A stretch of 64,000 bases of DNA from an uncultured Candidatus Saccharibacteria bacterium. Lineage in GTDB: Bacteria; Patescibacteriota; Minisyncoccia; Phycocordibacterales; UBA9973. Below the pieces are notes generated by a model. The model saw nothing but the letters and a program-made list of their open reading frames with translations, was not told the origin of the DNA and did not search any database. The stretch covers positions 65,737 through 129,736 of the forward strand of contig CAYZYV010000004.1 in assembly GCA_964482735.1 (NCBI GenBank). Direction: 5' to 3'. Shown here piece by piece: positions 9,808-62,654 of the stretch; position 1 is the first letter of the stretch, and each line of letters begins with the position of its first letter. Position numbers and translations under genes: made by a program.

Positions 9808-10620
9808 TTGATGAATACCAAAGGAGATTTCTGGACAAAAATATATTATAATAAAAAAGTGAAAAAGGAATCTCTAAAACCTAATAAAGCCAAAAAAGGA
9901 TTTACCCTCATTGAACTTCTTGTCGTCATCGCTATCATCGGAATACTTTCTGCTGTGGTTATTGCTTCGCTAAACAGTGCTCGAGAAAAGGGGAAGGTTG
10001 CAATGATCAAATCTACTCTCAAGAACATGCAGTCTCAAGCTGAATTAACTTACACAACAAACGGAGATTATTCTACTTTATATAACTCTTCTACCTATGA
10101 TTGTATTGGTTCATTAACTAAAATGGCAGAAAGTTTAACTAATCAAGGAGTAACGGTTAAATGCTATTCTCGTAACAGTTCGTCCCAAAACGATGTCTAC
10201 CTCCGTTTCGGTGCCACTGCTATCATATATAACACTAATAGTTTCAAAGCATGGTCTACAGACCAAAACGGAGTAGCAACTTGGGATCAAAAAGGGGTAG
10301 ACTCGACAGGTGCATATGTTGATGCAGATATTACCTCGGGTATGACATTAGCTATTTCAAACTCCGCTTGTGCTAAAGCAGGAGGAAGACTTCCATCTCT
10401 TGAACAATTGTTTACTCTTAGCAGGGCTTATTATACCGCTTCTGGAAATACATCTTACAAACCCACTAGTGTTGGTTTTAAAGCAAGTTATTACTGGTCT
10501 TCTGTGCTTTCTCCACTTCCATCTGATAATTCACAAGCATACTACGTTAACTTTGGTGCTGATACTAGTATTGGCACTAGTCCTGTTACAAATGGTGGTT
10601 ACGTTCGCTGTGTTAGATAA
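9808..10620 (+). CDS. Type IV pilin-like protein with C-terminal DGR-target-type lectin/FGE-like domain (paralog 1; no cognate TR in window)
   Basis: Prepilin motif KG-FTLIELLVVIAIIGILSAVV. The C-terminus GGRLPSLEQ...YYWSS...GGYVRCVR matches the tail of the DGR2 target. Confidence 0.7.
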   Translation: MMNTKGDFWTKIYYNKKVKKESLKPNKAKKGFTLIELLVVIAIIGILSAVVIASLNSAREKGKVAMIKSTLKNMQSQAELTYTTNGDYSTLYNSSTYDCIGSLTKMAESLTNQGVTVKCYSRNSSSQNDVYLRFGATAIIYNTNSFKAWSTDQNGVATWDQKGVDSTGAYVDADITSGMTLAISNSACAKAGGRLPSLEQLFTLSRAYYTASGNTSYKPTSVGFKASYYWSSVLSPLPSDNSQAYYVNFGADTSIGTSPVTNGGYVRCVR

Positions 10621-13230: not shown

Positions 13231-13279
13231 AAAACAGTAAGACCCAAATATCTTCATATCTGGGTCAAACTGTTTTATG
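13231..13279. terminator. Bidirectional terminator hairpin
   Basis: gtaaaacagtaa-gaccca-loop-tgggtc-aaactgtttta nested inverted repeats. Confidence 0.5.
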
Positions 13280-13280
13280 T

Positions 13281-13397
13281 GATCCCGGCAGGAATCGAAC
13301 CTGCATCATAACTTCCGCAAAGTTACGTCCTATCCCCGCCCGACTGGAACGACCACTAATCTTGTCCAGTCGTTCGGGCGGGCATTGAATGACAACG
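13281..13397 (-). pseudogene. Partial tRNA-Arg-like copy (D-arm to 3' end, lacks 5' acceptor strand) carrying a 48-nt GC hairpin insert in the D-loop
   Basis: Anticodon arm TAACT-TTGCGGA-AGTTA, T-arm GCAGG-TTCGATT-CCTGC, and 3' CGGGATC-A. Insert 13336..13383 ccgcccga...tcgttcgggcgggc. Confidence 0.5.
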
Positions 13398-13401
13398 CTT
13401 G

Positions 13402-13473
13402 TGCTCTCAGTAGGAATCGAACCTACATCATAACTTCCGCAAAGTTACGTTCTATCCATTGAACTATGAGAGC
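13402..13473 (-). tRNA. tRNA-Arg (anticodon GCG as read from the loop)
   Basis: Perfect cloverleaf on the minus strand: GCTCTCA-TA-GTTC-AATGGATA-GAAC-G-TAACT-TTGCGGA-AGTTA-TGAT-GTAGG-TTCGATT-CCTAC-TGAGAGC-A. Confidence 0.75.
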
Positions 13474-13706
13474 AACTTATTTTTTAAATATTTTCGACCA
13501 GAAGCGGTCTTCCAATATTTTTCTTTTTCTACTGCCTCTTTCAGGGTTGAACACTTTTCAAAATAAACTAAGTCAAACGGAGCATAATGCTTGTTGGACT
13601 TTGTTATTTTACTATTATGTTCAGACAGTCTCTTTTCTAGATTTGAACAGAAACCTTTATAGTAAAAGTCTAAAAATTTACTTTTTATGACATATACATA
13701 ATACAT
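13464..13706 (-). CDS. Mini GIY-YIG nuclease domain protein (80 aa)
   Basis: YVYVIKS...YYKGFCSNLEKRLSEHN is a GIY-YIG core. The start codon lies inside a partial tRNA copy and the stop overlaps the tRNA-Arg 5' end. Confidence 0.7.
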   Translation of the reverse strand: MYYVYVIKSKFLDFYYKGFCSNLEKRLSEHNSKITKSNKHYAPFDLVYFEKCSTLKEAVEKEKYWKTASGRKYLKNKLLS

Positions 13707-13783
13707 AAGTTACATCCTATTCCCGCCCGACTGGAACGACTACCAATCTCGTCCAGTCGTTCGGGCGGGCATTGAATGACTGG
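13700..13783 (-). repeat. Second partial tRNA-Arg-like fragment (D-arm to anticodon stem) with the same 48-nt hairpin insert
   Basis: agttacatcctattc + ccgcccgactggaacgactaccaatctcgtccagtcgttcgggcgggc + attgaatgac; the insert is at 13717..13764. Confidence 0.5.
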
Positions 13784-32093: not shown

Positions 32094-32143
32094 ATTTTTT
32101 AACGTTTTTTTGGTATAAATATAAAACCACAGAGTGGTTTTAT

Positions 32144-32216
32144 GGTGCCTATAGTGTAATGGTTAGCACAAGAGTCTGTGGATCTCTTAGTCAGAGTTCG
32201 AGTCTCTGTAGGCACC
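32144..32216 (+). tRNA. tRNA-His (anticodon GTG) with encoded G-1
   Basis: The extra 5' G pairs with discriminator C. Anticodon loop CTGTGGA, T-arm CAGAG-TTCGAGT-CTCTG. Confidence 0.8.
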
Positions 32217-32253
32217 CACACCTATATTTTTATAGTCGTAAATCATATATAAT

Positions 32254-32514
32254 ATGTATATGTTTTATTTCTATGTGTTAAAAAGTAAAAAAGATAATAA
32301 TTTGTATTTTGGCTCTACAAATAATTTACGACGCAGGCTTTTAGACCACAACAGTGGTAAAGTAAACTCTACTCGTCCTAGATTACCATTTGAGCTTAAA
32401 TATTATGAAGCTTATTCTAATGAAAATGATGCCAGAAAGAGAGAAGCTTCAATTAAGAAAGATGGTCGAGCTTTATCTGTGTTACGGAAAAGAATAAGCC
32501 AAAGCCTGCAATAA
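32254..32514 (+). CDS. Mini GIY-YIG nuclease domain protein (86 aa) inserted at the 3' flank of tRNA-His
   Basis: FYFYVLKS...YFGSTNNLRRRLLDHN GIY-YIG core. It is flanked by a 12-nt duplicate of the tRNA-His 3' end (tgtaggcaccca at 32205..32216 and 32530..32541) and by the inverted cccacacc/ggtgtggg motif. Confidence 0.7.
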   Translation: MYMFYFYVLKSKKDNNLYFGSTNNLRRRLLDHNSGKVNSTRPRLPFELKYYEAYSNENDARKREASIKKDGRALSVLRKRISQSLQ

Positions 32515-32610
32515 AAAAATGGGTGTGGGTGTAGGCACCCAGCGTGAAATTTCTAAATAATATCTTTGTGCAGCTTGGTAGATTTAGTTCTACTCTGATA
32601 TACTTTTTAT

Positions 32611-33024
32611 ATGAAAATAGAAAATTTTGCAGGGTGTTTAATTATTGAAAATGGAAAGGTTCTTTTAGTTCAAGAAAAACACAAAGAAGCTTATGGTCTT
32701 TGGTCACTACCCCTTGGACATAGTGAGGAAAATGAAAATGAAAAAGAAACAGCTATAAGAGAGACAAAAGAAGAAACAGGGTTAAATGTTTCTCTGGATA
32801 AAAATAAAACCTTAGAACTTCAAGGAAGAGAATTTAAGAGTACGAGTAATTTTGATGACAATATAATAAATTTAACTATTTTTCAAGCAAAAATCACTGG
32901 TGGTAGTTTATGTATAGGAAATGATATTCTGGATATAAAATGGTTTTCTGTAGATGAACTAAATCAAATTCAATTGAGAGGGGAATGGATTAAATATTTT
33001 GTTGATAAACTGGGATATAAATAG
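32611..33024 (+). CDS. NUDIX hydrolase
   Basis: Nudix box GHSEENENEKETAIRETKEETGL. Confidence 0.75.
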   Translation: MKIENFAGCLIIENGKVLLVQEKHKEAYGLWSLPLGHSEENENEKETAIRETKEETGLNVSLDKNKTLELQGREFKSTSNFDDNIINLTIFQAKITGGSLCIGNDILDIKWFSVDELNQIQLRGEWIKYFVDKLGYK

Positions 33025-33043
33025 TTGTATCATTTCTTTGTTC

Positions 33044-33090
33044 AAAAATAGTTCTAACATCCTCCACCACGGCACCAAAGAATAAAATAA
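33044..33090 (+). repeat. Left copy of a 46-47 nt direct repeat bracketing the DGR1 cassette
   Basis: aaaaatagttctaacatcctccaccacggcaccaaagaataaaataa versus 35905..35950, about 43 of 46 identical. Confidence 0.5.
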
Positions 33091-33309
33091 TGATAAAAAC
33101 CTTATAAAATAAGGTGTTTTTTGTCATACTAAAACATTGACTTTTCTGTCAAATATGATATACTATTAGGTAGTTCCTTGAAATCTACTTGCGTATAATG
33201 GTCATAGCCAAAAGGTGCTTATTTATAGGTATTTTCTGGCTATGACTGTTGTCTAGTCCCACTTACGGGAAGTAAGAAAAAAGAGCTATAAGCTCATAAT
33301 ACTTTTATT

Positions 33310-33909
33310 ATGAAATACAATGATTTTACCCTAGGACAAATTGAAGCAGTTTTAAACAAACTAGGTGGAATAGAAGGCGTAATGGACTTTCTTTCTGGCA
33401 AAACTATTGTGAAGGTTCCATCGGATGAAAAAACCTTGTTCAATGTATGGAAAACTATTAAACTCGGCAATTACAAAAATGCCGATGAGTTTCGTAAGGC
33501 ACTCAAAAAAAATGGTTTCAAAACCGGCGACTGGGCAAACGACATCCTCGACAAACCCGCATTTACAGTAGCTGGAGCAGAAGAAGAAATCCAGTTGGTG
33601 AATGTTTCAGTAGCTGACCTTGGTTTCAAAAACGGTGCCACTTACAAGGGTATCTGTGCTAAAGCCAAAGAACTTGGCTTGGAACTTTGTCCCAATGAAG
33701 TCGGTCCACAATTGCGTTTGCAATACAAAGACCAGCCCAAGGGCGAACACCTGTGTATTGCAATGGAACCAATTACCGACTCGTTTGGCAACCTCAGCAT
33801 CTTCCACGTTGGACACGATGACGATGTTTTGTGGCTCTATGGCTACTATGGCTATTCTGTCCCTTTCTGGAGTGCTTACTACCGTTTTGTTTTCCGTCTT
33901 CGCAAGTAG
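33310..33909 (+). CDS. DGR1 variable (target) protein; C-terminal variable region
   Basis: The last 136 nt (VR1, 33772..33907) match TR1 with about 17 mismatches, all but one of which lie at TR adenines. Confidence 0.75.
   Translation: MKYNDFTLGQIEAVLNKLGGIEGVMDFLSGKTIVKVPSDEKTLFNVWKTIKLGNYKNADEFRKALKKNGFKTGDWANDILDKPAFTVAGAEEEIQLVNVSVADLGFKNGATYKGICAKAKELGLELCPNEVGPQLRLQYKDQPKGEHLCIAMEPITDSFGNLSIFHVGHDDDVLWLYGYYGYSVPFWSAYYRFVFRLRK
33772..33907 (+). repeat. DGR1 variable repeat (VR1)
   Basis: Aligned to TR1 34267..34402. TR A maps to VR G/C/T at about 16 sites, including AAC-type codons. Confidence 0.8.
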
Positions 33910-34266
33910 CACTTGGACCTTGTTTACTTTGGTCTCTTTTGACCCTTTGGACTTTGTCCTTAAAAAAGTTTTTGAAGTATCACACAACCTCTATGACCCC
34001 TGTATAATTAAAAAAACAGGGGTTATTTTTTTGTGCTAAAATAAATATGGTAGTAGGTGAATATGTGGAAGATTAAGGTTTTCCGCTACCGAACCCAGTA
34101 TCCATACATCGAGAGTATTTGCGACCACGGTTTCAAATAGAGTGATGTATGTAGAAACTTCAAAAAATGAAGATACTTGGTGTAGAAAGCTGGGTGATTT
34201 TATATCACGAATAAGGTTCAACCCCGAGAGTATTCAAAGGGTGGTGGGTTAGATGGCTTACTATAC

Positions 34267-34402
34267 ATTACCGACTCGGATGGCAACCTCAACATCTTCA
34301 ACGTTGAACACGATGACGATGATTTGTGGCTCAATGGCAACAATGGCAATTCTGTCAATTTCTGGAATGCTAACAACCGTTTTGTTTTCCGTCTTCGCAA
34401 AT
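34267..34402 (+). repeat. DGR1 template repeat (TR1)
   Basis: Noncoding 136-nt copy of VR1 that keeps adenines where VR1 varies. Confidence 0.8.
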
Positions 34403-34424
34403 CTTTTCATTTCTCTCTCACTAT

Positions 34425-34748
34425 TTATTTGGGAGAGTTTTGTTTTATAAGTTGTCCATTCCAACCACCAAGTATTTTGCCTATCTCATCTATCCCTGCA
34501 GAAAGAGTAATATATTTTTTATCATCTAATGCTTTAATTTCCCATAGAACCATCAAAAGTATTTTTAAGGTGTCTGTTTTTCTTATCGCTAGTCGGACCC
34601 ACGGAGGTTTTTCTTCTCTAGATAAAAAACTAGCAATAGAAATTGCTTCTATAATTTCCACAAAGATAGTATCAATTTTTTGTCCTAGAGAGTGTTTGTG
34701 TATTTTAGGCAGAGTTTGGTAAAAAGTAATCCAAATTAGATAAGTCAT
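34425..34748 (-). CDS. avd: DGR accessory variability determinant (Avd-like four-helix-bundle protein), divergent from RT1
   Basis: 107 aa from the internal Met. The C-terminal GIDEIGKILGGW resembles the bAvd EVGRILGSW region. It lies between TR1 and RT1. Confidence 0.6.
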   Translation of the reverse strand: MTYLIWITFYQTLPKIHKHSLGQKIDTIFVEIIEAISIASFLSREEKPPWVRLAIRKTDTLKILLMVLWEIKALDDKKYITLSAGIDEIGKILGGWNGQLIKQNSPK

Positions 34749-34776
34749 TTTTGCTTTTGCCAGTAGGGGCAAAAGC

Positions 34777-34787
34777 GGGGGGGGGGG
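34777..34787. repeat. G11 homopolymer in the 52-nt avd1/RT1 divergent intergenic region
   Basis: ggggggggggg sits 14 nt upstream of the RT1 ATG and 29 nt upstream of the avd1 ATG, and it is unusual in an AT-rich genome. Confidence 0.7.
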
Positions 34788-34800
34788 TAAAATCATTACT

Positions 34801-35805
34801 ATGTCTCGTATACAATTTAGTCATACATATCAATATATCATTTCTACTGAAAATCTCCTCCTTGCTTGGAAGGAGTTTTTGAAAGGCAAAAAATCAAGGA
34901 AAGATGTTTTAGAGTTTGAAAGAAACTTGATGACTAATATCTTAAAACTTCACAGCGAACTCTCAAATAAAACATATAAACATTCTGATTACCAAGCATT
35001 TGATATATCTGACCCTAAACCACGAAGCATACATAAAGCAAAAGTGCGGGACAGATTACTTCATCACGCACTCTATCGCGAACTTTATCCATTTTTTGAT
35101 AGAACATTTATAGCCGACTCATATTCTTGTAGGAAAAATAAGGGAACGCATAAAGCAATGCGGAGGTTTCGGGTGTTTTCAAATAAAGTATCAAAAAACA
35201 ATACAAAAACTTGCTGGGTTTTGAAGGGTGATATACGAAAGTTTTTTGGGTCAATAGACCAGGAAATACTTGTTGAAATAATTAAAGAATATATTTATGA
35301 TAAAGATATAATTTCGTTATTATTTGAAATTATTGTAAGTTTCCAATCTACAAAAAAAGATGTTGGGTTACCTCTTGGCAATTTAACATCACAAATACTT
35401 GTGAACATTTATATGAATGAGTTTGACCAGTTTGTAAAACATAAACTAAAAGCAAAATACTATATTCGTTATGCCGATGATTTTGTTATTATGTCTGACA
35501 AAAAAGAATGGCTTGAAAACTTATTGCCACAAGTAGCAATTTTTCTTGAGATACGGCTCAAATTATTGCTTCATCCAGACAAGGTTTTTATAAAAACTCT
35601 TGTCTCTGGAGTTGATTTTCTCGGGTGGGTCCATTTTCCCGACCATCGGATAGTAAGAACCATAACTAAACGCAGAATGTTAAAACATATTAGACAAAGG
35701 GAAGGCAAAAAAGAAACGGTCCAGTCCTGTCTTGGGCTCTTAAGCCACGGTAATGCGAAGAAACTTTCTAACTCAATAACTATGAAATATGTAATTGAAA
35801 AATAA
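34801..35805 (+). CDS. DGR reverse transcriptase (RT1)
   Basis: RT motifs with the DGR-typical LPLGNLTSQ (SQ rather than QG) and YADD (RYADDFVI). Only 334 aa, with no maturase or endonuclease domains. Confidence 0.85.
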   Translation: MSRIQFSHTYQYIISTENLLLAWKEFLKGKKSRKDVLEFERNLMTNILKLHSELSNKTYKHSDYQAFDISDPKPRSIHKAKVRDRLLHHALYRELYPFFDRTFIADSYSCRKNKGTHKAMRRFRVFSNKVSKNNTKTCWVLKGDIRKFFGSIDQEILVEIIKEYIYDKDIISLLFEIIVSFQSTKKDVGLPLGNLTSQILVNIYMNEFDQFVKHKLKAKYYIRYADDFVIMSDKKEWLENLLPQVAIFLEIRLKLLLHPDKVFIKTLVSGVDFLGWVHFPDHRIVRTITKRRMLKHIRQREGKKETVQSCLGLLSHGNAKKLSNSITMKYVIEK

Positions 35806-35904
35806 AGGATTTATTAAAATAGTGAGAAGTAGAGCAGGGTAAAATTAGACCATTATAATAGGTTGGAACTCCGGAATATAAATTGCTGCATCGTTTCTTC
35901 TCTT

Positions 35905-35950
35905 AAAAATAGTTCTAACATCCTCTACTACGGCACCAAAGAATAAATAA
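35905..35950 (+). repeat. Right copy of the direct repeat bracketing the DGR1 cassette
   Basis: aaaaatagttctaacatcctctactacggcaccaaagaataaataa. Confidence 0.5.
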
Positions 35951-36050
35951 GTAAATGGTTACGTTTGCTTATTTTCTAATACGCTTGACAACCGTGTTAG
36001 AAAAATATAACATTGGAAGTGTGTTAATTATTTCTAACGTTTAAATTATT

Positions 36051-42591: not shown

Positions 42592-42645
42592 AACAGCCGA
42601 GGTCGGACCTCGTACGAGGTCCGACCTCGGCTGTTATCCACAGGT
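42592..42645. repeat. GC-rich REP-like perfect palindrome (44 bp) plus conserved atccacaggt tail; second copy at 62584..62654
   Basis: aacagccgaggtcggacctcgtacgaggtccgacctcggctgtt is a perfect inverted repeat. Confidence 0.6.
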
Positions 42646-42804: not shown

Positions 42805-43593
42805 GTGAAAAACAAACTCTTAAAATCAGATAATAAAACTACAGGGTTCACTTTAATTGAACTCTTAGTCGTTATCGCAATCATTGGAATTTTATCAGCC
42901 GTAGTTGTCGCTTCGCTAAACAGTGCAAGAGAGAAAGGAAAGATTGCTTCTATTAAATCCACCTTAAAACAACTATATAACCAAGCAGCCATCAATCAAG
43001 CAGAATATGGTAGTTTTGCAAACTCTAATACATCATATTCAGATTTAACTTGTACAGGCCCAGGAGGTAATCTAGCTAAAATAGCTCAACCACTCATTGA
43101 TCAAGGAATTATAGTTAAATGCTTTAGTTTTAATAGTCCGGCATCTGGAGATTTGTCCCTTCGCTTTGCTGCAACCGCTCTTATATATGATACAAATGAA
43201 CTCAAAGCATGGTCAGTAGATGAAAACGGTGTAGTTAAATGGGATACTCATGGAGTTAATACTGATGGGACAACAAGATCAACAGATATAACCATGGCAT
43301 GGAAGGACCTAAATGATATCACTATAGCTATGAACGCTTGTGCGAAAAATGGTGGTCGTCTTCCTTCTGTGGAACAATTTCGAACCCTGTTTCATTCATG
43401 GTACTCATCTACTGGCAATGTGTCATATCTTCCAATACCAACAGAAGGTTCTTTTTCAAATGGTTACTACTGGTCATCAACTTCTGTACCGCTTTGGCCA
43501 GAGACTAGATCATATTCTTTGATCACAGAGAGCTCAAATATAGGATTCTCTGGTTCGTTGAGTTCTGGTTATTATGTCCGTTGTGTTAGATAA
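42805..43593 (+). CDS. Type IV pilin-like protein with C-terminal lectin/FGE-like DGR-target-type domain (paralog 2; no cognate TR found)
   Basis: GFTLIELLVVIAIIGILSAVV prepilin motif; C-terminal GGRLPSVEQ...YYWSS...GYYVRCVR. Confidence 0.7.
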   Translation: MKNKLLKSDNKTTGFTLIELLVVIAIIGILSAVVVASLNSAREKGKIASIKSTLKQLYNQAAINQAEYGSFANSNTSYSDLTCTGPGGNLAKIAQPLIDQGIIVKCFSFNSPASGDLSLRFAATALIYDTNELKAWSVDENGVVKWDTHGVNTDGTTRSTDITMAWKDLNDITIAMNACAKNGGRLPSVEQFRTLFHSWYSSTGNVSYLPIPTEGSFSNGYYWSSTSVPLWPETRSYSLITESSNIGFSGSLSSGYYVRCVR

Positions 43594-45756: not shown

Positions 45757-46536
45757 TTGTATAATAAAACTATGATTAAGAATTATAAAAACACTAATAA
45801 TGCCTTTACTCTCATCGAACTCCTCGTCGTCGTCGCAATCATCGGAATACTCTCCTCAGTAGTCATCACATCACTAAACTCTGCAAGAGAAAAGAGCAAG
45901 ATTGCTTCTATTAAATCCACCTTAAAACAACTATACAACCAAGCTGCCATCAATCAAGTAGAAAATGGTAGTTTTACTGGATCTAATCCTTCATATTCAA
46001 ACTTAACCTGTTCTGGCAACTTAGCTCCAATAATTAAACCACTAGAAGACCAGGGAATAATAGTTAAATGCTTTAGTTTCTATGGAAGTCCCTATGGAGG
46101 AAATTATACAGGAGACGATTATAACAGATTCGCCGCCACGGCCCTCATCTACGACACAGGAGAACTCAAAGCATGGTCTGTAGATGAAAACGGTGTAGTT
46201 AAATGGGATACACAAGGAGTAAACTCAACAGGAGCTTTTGTTACCCCTGACATTACAGCCTCATGGACTAATGCTCAAAACAGATGTGCTTTATCTGGTG
46301 GACGTCTCCCTTCTATTGAACAATTGAGAACTCTATCTCATGCATGGTATTCTAAAGCTAATACTGATGGAGATGTAGACCCTTGGGCACCTCTTGGTTT
46401 CGTAGCAAGCATCTACTGGTCTTCTACCCCCGTTCCGTCGTCGCCTACTACGCTCGCTTACGGCCAGATCATGGCCTATGGTAGCTTGACCTCCTACAGT
46501 CAGACTCTCGGGTACTATGTTCGCTGTGTTAGGTAG
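45757..46536 (+). CDS. DGR2 variable (target) protein: type IV pilin-like N-terminus plus C-terminal lectin/FGE-like domain carrying VR2
   Basis: AFTLIELLVVVAIIGILSSVV prepilin motif, and a C-terminal ...YWSSTPVPSSPTTLAYGQIMAYGSLTSYSQTLGYYVRCVR encoded by VR2. Confidence 0.8.
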   Translation: MYNKTMIKNYKNTNNAFTLIELLVVVAIIGILSSVVITSLNSAREKSKIASIKSTLKQLYNQAAINQVENGSFTGSNPSYSNLTCSGNLAPIIKPLEDQGIIVKCFSFYGSPYGGNYTGDDYNRFAATALIYDTGELKAWSVDENGVVKWDTQGVNSTGAFVTPDITASWTNAQNRCALSGGRLPSIEQLRTLSHAWYSKANTDGDVDPWAPLGFVASIYWSSTPVPSSPTTLAYGQIMAYGSLTSYSQTLGYYVRCVR

Positions 46537-46556
46537 TAGTGTGTTCGCCTAGAATT
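46391..46556 (+). repeat. DGR2 variable repeat (VR2), which extends 20 nt past the stop codon (IMH-like region)
   Basis: The 166-nt alignment to TR2 has 19 mismatches, and every one of them is at a TR adenine. Confidence 0.85.
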
Positions 46557-46565
46557 CATTATTAC

Positions 46566-46630
46566 ATCCCGACTTTATGTCGGGACATTCTCTCTCGAAT
46601 GACTCCGACGTAAGGAGGAGCATTCGAGAG
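46566..46630. promoter_or_regulatory. Two GC hairpins immediately 3' of VR2 (DGR homing-associated stem-loops)
   Basis: tcccgac-tttat-gtcggga, and the 12-bp stem ctctctcgaatg...cattcgagagag. Confidence 0.5.
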
Positions 46631-46635
46631 AGGGC

Positions 46636-47076
46636 TTGTCGTTTATGTCTATTTATTCTAATCTTCCAATATACAACAATACATTTTCATTGTTAAAAGA
46701 ACTATACATAAGAGTTCCTAAATTTAGTAAAGAATATAAATATCTTCTAGGGGAGAAAATGATTAAATGCTGTGTGGACAGTCTTGTGTTAATTAATCAA
46801 ATTAGTTCAAGTAAAGAAAGGGTCGAAAGAATAAATCTTTTGATGAGATTAGAAGATAACATGAATGTACTAATGGTGCATGTCCGAATAGCTAATGAAC
46901 TCAATCAATTAGTTAAAAAGGATAATTATTTCTTTTTATCTCAAAAAATAATAGAAATTTTAAATCAAGCAGAAAATTGGAAAAAGTTTCTTCAGAAGAA
47001 GAAATGTTCCCAGAATTGCACCTCTGATGGTAGTGCAAGTGTGGATAAAAAAATTCCTCTCCCCACCCCTTGTTAA
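46636..47076 (+). CDS. avd: DGR accessory variability determinant (Avd-like) of DGR2
   Basis: 146-aa helical protein located between the target gene and TR2-RT2. The C-terminal IEILNQAENW aligns with the bAvd EVGRILGSW region. Confidence 0.6.
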   Translation: MSFMSIYSNLPIYNNTFSLLKELYIRVPKFSKEYKYLLGEKMIKCCVDSLVLINQISSSKERVERINLLMRLEDNMNVLMVHVRIANELNQLVKKDNYFFLSQKIIEILNQAENWKKFLQKKKCSQNCTSDGSASVDKKIPLPTPC

Positions 47077-47135
47077 AAGATCTATCACTTTAGACAAGGG
47101 ATAAGAGGTTATCATGATTGAGTTGGGGAGACTAG

Positions 47136-47301
47136 CTCTTGGTTTCGTAGCAAACAACTACTGGTCTTCTACCCCCGTTCCGTCGTCGCCTACTACGCTC
47201 GCTTACAACCAGAACATGAACAATGGTAACTTGAACAACAACAGTCAGACTAACGGGAACTATGTTCGCTGTGTTAGGTAGAAGTGTGTTCGCCTAGAAT
47301 T
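47136..47301 (+). repeat. DGR2 template repeat (TR2)
   Basis: Intergenic between avd2 and RT2. It is rich in AAC codons (NNQNMNNGNLNNNSQTNGN) that appear mutated in VR2. Confidence 0.85.
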
Positions 47302-47337
47302 TTGTTTCCAATTTTCTGCTTGATTTAATATTTTAGA

Positions 47338-48411
47338 ATGACAATTTTCACAATTAAAAATATATATAAAGCATATAATGATTGCTTAAAACACAAGAAA
47401 AACACAACTAATGCTTTAAAATTTGAGCTAAACAGAGAGAAGAATTTGTATTCATTACTCAAAGATTTACAAAACAGAACTTACAAAATATCAAGACATA
47501 TATGCTTCGTGGTAACAGTGCCAACGGCTAGGGAAATATTTGCAGCTGATTTTCGAGATAGAATAATTCACCATGTACTATATAATGAGATAAGAGATTT
47601 ATTTGAAAGTAATTTCATTGAAGAATCATATGCTAATAGATTAGGCAAAGGGACTCATATGGCTGTTCGAAAATTAAGATATCATATAGCAAGAGGAGGA
47701 AAGGATGGTAGAAGATTATATTATTTAAAGATGGATATCAAGGGATTTTTCAGAAATATAGACAAAAATATTCTATACGAAGAAATGAAAATGATTATTG
47801 TGAGAAGTGACAAAGATAAATCGTGGAAAGACGAAATACTGTGGCTAACAAAAATGATTATTTTTCATGATCCAACATCTAATTATGTTTTCAAAGGGGC
47901 GAATAATACAAGAGGCGTTGTCCCTAAGCACAAATCTTTGTTTTATGGAGATAGAAATAAAGGTTTACCAATAGGGAATTTAACTAGCCAATTTTTTGCA
48001 AATATTTATTTAGACAAACTTGATCATTTTGTAAAAGAGGAATTAAAATTTTATCGCTATCTTAGATATGTTGATGATTTTATTATCCTAGATGAAGACA
48101 AAGAAAGGTTAGAAGAAACGATAAAAAAAATTGATCTATTTCTTAACCAGAAGTTAAATTTAAAATTGGCCCCCGATAAGATATTTCTAAGGCAGGTTAA
48201 TCATGGAATAGACTTTCTTGGTTATTATATTAAACCGACTCATACTCTAGTAAGAAGAAAGGTGGTTCGGAGGTTTAAAGACAAAATGTATAAAAATAAA
48301 AACAAAGAAGATGGCTTATACTCTATAAAATTTCTGTCTGTTATAAGATCTTATTTTGGACATTTCGAGCATGCAAATAGTTATAATTTGAGGAAAAAAT
48401 TAATAGGTTAG
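47338..48411 (+). CDS. DGR reverse transcriptase (RT2)
   Basis: 357 aa, with GLPIGNLTSQ and YVDD (RYVDDFIIL) motifs, and about 40 percent identical to RT1 across the finger/palm region. Confidence 0.85.
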   Translation: MTIFTIKNIYKAYNDCLKHKKNTTNALKFELNREKNLYSLLKDLQNRTYKISRHICFVVTVPTAREIFAADFRDRIIHHVLYNEIRDLFESNFIEESYANRLGKGTHMAVRKLRYHIARGGKDGRRLYYLKMDIKGFFRNIDKNILYEEMKMIIVRSDKDKSWKDEILWLTKMIIFHDPTSNYVFKGANNTRGVVPKHKSLFYGDRNKGLPIGNLTSQFFANIYLDKLDHFVKEELKFYRYLRYVDDFIILDEDKERLEETIKKIDLFLNQKLNLKLAPDKIFLRQVNHGIDFLGYYIKPTHTLVRRKVVRRFKDKMYKNKNKEDGLYSIKFLSVIRSYFGHFEHANSYNLRKKLIG

Positions 48412-62583: not shown

Positions 62584-62654
62584 AACAGCCGAGGTCTTTC
62601 CTCGTACGAGGTCGGACCTAGTACGAGGTCCGACCTCGGCTGTTATCCACAGGT
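62584..62654. repeat. Second copy of the GC-rich REP-like palindrome, with an internal expansion
   Basis: aacagccgaggtc-[tttcctcgtacgaggtcggacctagtacgaggtccgac]-ctcggctgttatccacagg. Confidence 0.6.

Follow-up and report, generated by a model that had tools for sequence, protein, structure and literature searches.

A B3-type diversity-generating retroelement with population-level signs of activity, lying between two copies of a dispersed element in a Patescibacteria genome

The window analyzed here is a 64,000-nucleotide (64-kb) stretch of DNA from an uncultured Candidatus Saccharibacteria bacterium (contig CAYZYV010000004.1 of assembly GCA_964482735.1), and the subject is a diversity-generating retroelement (DGR) at 33310-35805. 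It consists of a target gene ending in a variable repeat (VR), a template repeat (TR), an accessory gene (avd) and a reverse transcriptase (RT) gene, and lies between two copies of a dispersed element of about 90 nt. With high confidence, the locus was read as an active DGR of architecture B3 whose block was most likely exchanged at or near the element copies and has not moved by itself. The following features make up the core of the DGR.

33137..33164, + strand: putative promoter-like site of the target gene (TTGACT, 16-nt spacer, TG-TATACT; 10/12 matches with TG in a consensus scan)
33310..33909, + strand: target gene, 199 aa, of a ~200-aa Patescibacteria family with a C-type-lectin-like fold
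33772..33907, + strand: VR, coding for the final 45 codons of the target
33997..34033, + strand: likely terminator of the target gene, predicted from a hairpin (CCCCTG...CAGGGG) followed by a T-run
34267..34402, + strand: TR, aligning with VR without gaps
34425..34748, - strand: avd (Pfam PF22296 bAvd, E 3.7e-10)
34801..35805, + strand: DGR reverse transcriptase, 334 aa (RVT_1, E 1.7e-23; LPLGNLTSQ and YADD motifs)

VR and TR were aligned over 136 nt with 16 differences, 15 of which replaced an adenine of TR by another base in VR (8 T, 4 G, 3 C), while the remaining one, a G to T, neighbors an A to T change. All fell on the first or second position of target codons except a terminal A to G, which marks the VR boundary and sits in a third codon position. 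Similarity between the repeats stops sharply at both edges; at their 3' ends, the expected place of IMH/IMH*, the final 25 nt are alike save for one A/G difference, and the sequences then diverge. The adenine specificity claimed in the original prediction held on re-alignment, but its count (about 16 A-to-N changes plus one other) was slightly too high. No GC-rich inverted repeat was found directly 3' of VR, where the closest hairpin lies ~90 nt downstream.

An adenine-specific TR/VR pair, DGR-type RT motifs ([LIV]GxxxSQ in motif 4, YxDD), an Avd protein and a VR at the 3' end of the target were all present. The earlier claim of a second DGR in the window, whose target is not a pilin and whose avd is inverted, was confirmed, and this DGR is complete. 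The LPLGNLTSQ and YADD motifs, also claimed earlier, were read in the RT translation. The avd open reading frame (ORF) stays open further, across a C-run to an ATG at 34796 (34425..34796, - strand), and the bAvd domain starts at the ATG at 34748. No Pfam domain was found in the 199-aa target protein. Its family comprises ~1300 clusters of ~200-aa proteins from Patescibacteria, in which a well-conserved protein body is followed by 45 hypervariable C-terminal residues, and the target has a variation-tolerant C-type-lectin-like fold. Between the promoter-like site and the target ATG lies a 145-nt leader (33165-33309) holding a long hairpin (GTCATAGCC...GGCTATGAC), a possible regulatory 5' untranslated region of the target gene.

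Searching for exact copies of the NUDIX, DUF2178 and helix-turn-helix (HTH) proteins that flank the DGR, and of target variants, led to other assemblies of the locus. Those of the DGR locus, retrieved from other samples, were ~99% identical overall. Six distinct VRs were found across near-identical strains, with 32 variable columns, 29 of them at TR adenines, and TR was unchanged in 15 of the 17 near-identical assemblies with a readable TR. The two that differed, L124 and L131 (L numbers are our handles for loci), belong to one slightly diverged strain lineage, the G7 lineage. Because the VRs of near-identical strains vary almost only at TR adenines while TR is mostly constant, these population-level sequence data argue that the DGR is currently active, with recent mutagenic retrohoming. 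For RT calls of 291 aa versus 334 aa in other assemblies a frameshift was considered and rejected, as the DNA was identical and the difference was one of gene calling.

A one-genome-per-species scan with the target alignment returned 79 loci, which were annotated using tblastn for targets, blastn for adenine-biased repeats and iterated hidden Markov models for RT and Avd. The order target (+), TR (+), avd (-), RT (+) was found in 36/36 DGR loci, window included. Across these loci the distance from target end to TR had a median of 358 nt (range 254-407), and that from TR end to avd stop was 3-46 nt, save in two loci with a duplicated TR. In those two (L056:6848-7492 and L085:1448-2107) the TR region is tandemly duplicated; both TR copies of L056 are 100% identical, and the second one occupies the usual place beside avd. 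For about half of the target-homolog loci (L016-L018, L022, L025, L026, L028 and ~30 more), TR, avd and RT were not found within 6 kb. Such loci may represent targets that are orphan or remote, or paralogs that are not diversified, and some may have been cut off by contig ends.

The layout had been called unusual, which the comparison contradicts. Architecture B3 was defined by Wu et al. (2018, Nucleic Acids Res 46:11, PMC5758913) as TR-(avd)-RT with a reverse-strand avd, and it accounts for 90% of the DGRs of the candidate phyla radiation (CPR). An inverted avd is typical, since B3 is published there as the main CPR architecture and all 36 loci share the order. The DGR at 33310-35805 is of architecture B3: the target with its 3' VR, the TR, the opposite-strand avd, the RT, the adenine-specific differences and the Patescibacteria-type host all agree, and nothing essential differs. 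Taken alone the DGR adds little, Patescibacteria being already known for their many B3 DGRs with small lectin-fold targets.

The prototype DGR, that of Bordetella phage BPP-1 (mtd-avd-TR-brt, architecture B1), has avd upstream of TR, whereas here avd is inverted and downstream of TR; the former is phage-borne and the latter is on a Patescibacteria chromosome. The structured RNA of BPP-1, reportedly described by Handa and colleagues in 2018, is the spacer between TR and brt, while the conserved structured RNA found here is upstream of TR. It forms part of a unit with the following features.

34034..34042, + strand: extended -10-like box TGCTAAAAT, putative promoter (columns TG.TA.AAT conserved in the 36-relative alignment)
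34049..34266, + strand: structured RNA leader, 218 nt directly 5' of TR (36-DGR alignment A5; window and L014-L091)
34413..34446, + strand: hairpin (34413-34437) and U-run (to 34446) after TR

The -10-like box stands directly 3' of the target's likely terminator hairpin (33997-34033). The ~230 nt immediately 5' of TR were conserved across all 36 DGRs, and RNAalifold predicted 46 pairs in the leader from these sequences, 38 of them with compensatory double changes. One extra helix seen by eye enlarged the set to 50 pairs. With this set, 97.0% of cells were paired, against 79% in shuffles and 38-48% with partners slid; both sides had changed in 41 of the 50 pairs, and the covariation score was 0.62 against 0.13-0.15 with slid partners. 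None of the observed values was reached in the shuffles (0/500). In the window the last helix of the leader abuts the first base of TR. The post-TR hairpin and U-run recur in 34/36 relatives with stem sequences that differ between genomes, and the avd stop codon (34425-34427) lies inside the hairpin loop. On this conservation the hairpin is likely a bidirectional terminator shared by the convergent TR RNA and avd, and TR most likely lies in its own self-contained RNA of ~400 nt ending where avd ends. The original prediction expected a TR-RT transcript antisense to avd. Such read-through is unlikely, and it is unnecessary because TR, with its own -10-like box, leader and hairpin with U-run, is likely carried by a self-contained RNA.

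In B3-type DGRs the leader probably serves as the DGR RNA scaffold. No Rfam family matched the leader/TR region, and no description of the leader RNA, the post-TR hairpin and U-run or the G-run described below was found in the searched parts of PMC5758913 or in the other literature searched, which did not extend to Paul et al. 2017. Together, leader and post-TR hairpin would delimit the likely RNA of the DGR architecture that is commonest yet biochemically unstudied, and the leader-TR-hairpin unit offers a concrete construct for testing.

The start regions of the divergent avd and RT genes contain one further conserved feature.

34777..34787, unstranded: G11 homopolymer, between or within the divergent avd/RT starts

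This run stands out in an AT-rich genome. It was 11, 10 or 7 nt long in near-identical assemblies, each length recurring in independent samples of one strain lineage, and the differences seen are between strains, not inside one strain; a run of G6-G13 occupies the same place in 27/34 related DGRs. Read in the avd frame it gives prolines directly ahead of the conserved Avd N-terminal motif LLPLLxK (PPP-LLPLLxK in relatives). Among relatives, start codons upstream of the run are inconsistent and a TTG usually follows it by 3-9 nt; on its RT side a TAnnnT hexamer is often immediately next. The run was considered as the RT Shine-Dalgarno sequence and rejected, because its distance to the RT ATG varies among relatives from 7 to ~40 nt while its position relative to the Avd N-terminal motif is fixed. 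Its recurrence and strain-variable length suggest that hypermutation may be turned on and off by slipped-strand switching, through effects on the translation of avd or on RT promoter spacing.

Taken together, the DGR would work as follows. The TR unit (extended -10 box, leader, TR, hairpin with U-run) would be transcribed as its own non-coding RNA of ~400 nt, and avd and RT would be expressed divergently from the short region containing the G-run. The RT-Avd complex would copy the TR RNA into adenine-mutagenized cDNA, which would then replace the 3' end of the C-type-lectin-fold target gene. The DGR would sit in a recombination-prone spot between two element copies, and the block would most likely have been gained or swapped by recombination at or beside them. 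The features on which this last step depends are listed below.

32987..33076, + strand: element copy 1 (nhmmer profile, E 9e-21), sharing 38 nt with the 3' end of the NUDIX gene (32611-33024)
33077..35994, unstranded: strain-variable block, from blastn breakpoints and sliding identity (alleles L006 and L009 have a 1065-nt segment with a 234-aa gene)
35849..35937, + strand: element copy 2 (nhmmer profile, E 4e-22)

The cassette had been described as bracketed by near-identical direct repeats of 46-47 nt (33044-33090 and 35905-35950). These repeats are real, with 2 mismatches in 43 nt (33044-33086 vs 35905-35947), and the 43-nt repeat has only two copies in the window (0 expected in shuffles). 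Their length was underestimated: at lower identity they extend leftwards to 93 nt at 80% (32994-33086 vs 35855-35947), the right copy having a degenerate match to the 3' end of the NUDIX gene ahead of it, and are best described as repeats of ~90 nt. With a nucleotide profile, exactly two element copies were found in the window. The core 26-mer GTTCTAACATCCTCYACYACRGCACC had 31 exact matches in JGI (Joint Genome Institute) metagenome contigs, and no match in viral contigs. Copies share ~90 nt with a sharp common end, GGCACC(C), and the sequence either side is unrelated between contigs. On the strand shown they start at or just past the stop codon of a gene and are followed by a hairpin with a T-run and often by the promoter-like site of the next gene. 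Three copies separate an 85-aa ORF, a methyltransferase-like gene and a 122-aa gene in L096:322-1820, and three separate a Fic gene with a 140-aa gene, a GNAT acetyltransferase and a HicAB pair in L106:397-2899; two copies stand in tandem in L105:842-1466. L102 and L107 share the same upstream gene and element, followed by different genes.

Among the 79 target-homolog loci the element was present only in L019 and L061. Flanking repeats were absent in 24 of the 29 related DGRs with enough flank, unrelated to the element in L040 (52 nt) and L086 (108 nt), and limited to short 14-20-nt matches in L036 and L063. The 52-nt repeat of L040 looked similar by eye and was considered as a diverged element, but was missed by both nucleotide and peptide profiles and was rejected. 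Because the family is dispersed elsewhere and most related DGRs have no flanking repeat, the flanking repeats are members of a lineage-wide dispersed family and are not a duplication made by DGR insertion. The proposal that they are scars of DGR acquisition was accordingly abandoned: in other genomes the element follows many unrelated genes. The opposite possibility raised with it, of common intergenic motifs with no link to cassette boundaries, was right as to dispersal, but here the element still marks a boundary of the cassette. Two further loci hold element copies close to DGR genes: L112:67-1458 has an RT fragment and a minus-strand gene ahead of a copy, and L122 (oriented copy, 265-2820) has an element, then a truncated glyA, then a DGR of the same family.

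Several identities were considered for the element. ARAGORN placed a tRNA-His at 32145-32217 and nothing at the repeats, where Rfam also gave nothing, and a tRNA 3'-end attachment (att) site was rejected. A structured RNA or attC-like hairpin was likewise rejected, as RNAalifold found 0 pairs in 35 copies and single-fold z-scores were -2.2 to +1.2; the element had no Rfam match and no covariation. The element varies with a period of 3 (phase-3 entropy 1.32 vs 0.88 and 0.77), and its minus strand reads GAVVEDVRT[IV]FE..NDATIYIP.FYPT.E.TI, usually followed by a stop. An in-frame start is missing in 10/34 copies; one copy has a stop directly upstream and one an internal nonsense codon. Two protein searches (one of 5.8 billion sequences with a word index, the other of 1.84 billion representatives with full HMMER) found the motif only in ORFs of 29-184 aa, always at the C-terminal end, the longer ORFs being read-through from neighboring sequence. 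A fragment of a longer conserved protein was rejected, given that these ORFs have unrelated N-terminal parts and no Pfam match. Two of the ORFs that read into the element, P0261 and P0301, are similar to the C-terminal part of large serine recombinases, and a recombinase zinc-ribbon ORF (PF13408, E 4.8e-12; L061:1326-2177, oriented copy) faces an element at a distance of ~460 nt. These remnants of large serine recombinases beside the element hint at an attachment site.

The exchange of the block was read from the two alleles without the DGR. L006 and L009 have an identical NUDIX gene and, between NUDIX and DUF2178, the 234-aa gene (no Pfam family) and ~330 nt of non-coding sequence. The window is ~100% identical to both from tRNA-His (32145) through GIY-YIG and NUDIX to 33076, which is the exact end of element copy 1, and copy 1 is complete in L006. 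Left of tRNA-His identity is only 60-70%; on the right side it is 95% (L006) and 76% (L009). This pattern indicates a recent recombinational transfer of the block 32120-33076, bounded by the tRNA gene and the element, and the locus is a recombination-shaped mosaic with conserved sequences (tRNA gene, element) at its joints. Only target, avd and RT were found between the repeats, with no recombinase or transposase. Both element copies share 10 nt past the usual end of the family (AAAGAATAAA), and their left halves are only ~66% identical; together these suggest a crossover or conversion inside the element. A gain or swap of the DGR as a block by homologous exchange is probable, a site-specific system is an unlikely agent of it, the former being the more likely of the two, and self-mobility of the DGR is not supported. 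Of the discrete mobile cassette first proposed, a discrete strain-variable block with its left edge at the left repeat remains, and the repeat-scar mechanism and self-mobility do not. The presence/absence comparison at the repeats gave a similarly divided answer, with an exact left breakpoint and, on the right, a breakpoint beyond copy 2 and a different gene in the other alleles.

Four points weigh against this account of an active DGR in an exchanged block. Identity with the other alleles resumes at 35995, so that the right breakpoint is 57 nt past element copy 2. Look-ups of the exact NUDIX, DUF2178 and HTH proteins returned only the DGR and 234-aa-gene alleles and no empty site (NUDIX-element-DUF2178), without which gain, loss and replacement cannot be ordered. 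The 10 nt shared beyond the family end are not predicted by homologous recombination alone and hint at local duplication or conversion. The promoter, terminator and ends of the TR RNA are predictions from conservation. As for the element itself, it may be a small convergent gene, a sequence of coding origin or an att-type site.

That the DGR is a self-contained mobile cassette, with the 46-nt repeats as a target-site duplication or att sites, would account for two near-identical repeats that enclose exactly target, TR, avd and RT, for the block missing from L006 and L009, and for the 10 nt that both copies share past the family boundary. It is very improbable all the same, and largely refuted: the left copy is complete in an allele without the DGR, the repeat belongs to a family dispersed behind many unrelated genes, flanking repeats are missing from 24 of 29 testable related DGRs and nearly all other DGR loci lack the element, the cassette codes only for target, Avd and RT, and the left halves of the two copies match at only ~66%. 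A second alternative, in which the ~90-nt element is the att-like site of a site-specific cassette or island system, such as one of large serine recombinases, and the DGR was captured as one cassette, fits the sharp right end GGCACC(C) common to all copies with unrelated sequence beyond it, the tandem arrays that separate single accessory genes (Fic, GNAT, HicAB, methyltransferase), the shared upstream gene and element of L102 and L107 ahead of different genes, and the recombinase C-termini among ORFs reading into the element together with the Zn_ribbon_recom ORF of L061. We nevertheless consider it unlikely, as no recombinase is in or beside the locus, no attC-like hairpin or consensus fold was found, neither an empty site nor a circular form turned up, the link to recombinases comes to 3 cases of which one is a degraded gene, and the right breakpoint against L006 falls beyond the element.

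Slightly less doubtful, though still not favored, is the reading of the element as a minus-strand small protein-coding gene that converges on the upstream gene, or as a derivative of one, in which case the repeats would be paralogous mini-genes unrelated to mobility. Its period-3 variation with conservative replacements, the invariably C-terminal position of the peptide in ORFs and 281 representative clusters matching at E<=0.001 speak for a coding origin; neither a conserved start codon nor a ribosome-binding site was found, however, and the missing in-frame starts, the upstream stop and the internal nonsense codon noted above, N-terminal parts that are unrelated read-through of flanking DNA, a complementary plus-strand frame equally open over the core and the want of a Pfam match speak against one. 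More speculative, and quite unlikely, is that the element with its core 26-mer is the junction site of an undescribed Patescibacteria cassette-exchange system, in which accessory genes and whole DGRs would be swapped by a dedicated recombinase or by portable homology, the present DGR being one such cassette with its activity possibly gated by the G-run. The exchange of a B3 DGR block at or near the elements, by recombination, was retained over these alternatives.

The element arrays resemble integron attC arrays in having a ~90-nt element with a sharp common end 3' of tandem single accessory genes (GNAT, toxin-antitoxin). They differ in that the element has no imperfect-palindrome fold or covariation, its sequence and not its structure being conserved, and in that every gene comes with a promoter-like site and a terminator of its own. 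Arrays were seen only on short metagenome contigs, and there no IntI-type integrase was noticed, though no systematic integrase search was made. Rickettsia palindromic elements are dispersed bacterial repeats readable as peptide. The present element is like them short and dispersed, with period-3 conservation, and readable into ORF ends, but unlike them it is not palindromic and stands at the 3' end of genes ahead of the terminator, not in frame inside genes. As a dispersed element at strain-variable gene junctions, it provides a handle on the movement of cassettes and DGRs in tiny genomes with few recognizable mobile elements.

The other DGR of the window (45757-48411) has the canonical B1 order avd-TR-RT, so that architectures B1 and B3 are both present in one genome.

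45757-46536, strand not given: target of the other DGR, pilin-like, with N_methyl and Lcl_C domains
46636-47076, + strand: avd of the B1 DGR
47136-47301, strand not given: TR of the B1 DGR
47338-48411, strand not given: RT of the B1 DGR

Two target-like paralogs of its target occur elsewhere in the window (9808-10620 and 42805-43593). At two distant places, 42598-42645 and 62590-62654, the window holds a palindromic repeat of 48 nt that is rich in GC (CGAGGTCGGACCTCGTACGAGGTCCGACCTCGGCTGTTATCCACAGGT); at the second place it is partly tandem. The window also contains two adjoining tRNA-Arg(GCG) genes (13278-13473), one of which is overlapped by a 74-nt repeat (13320-13780) that recurs 387 nt away at 93% identity.

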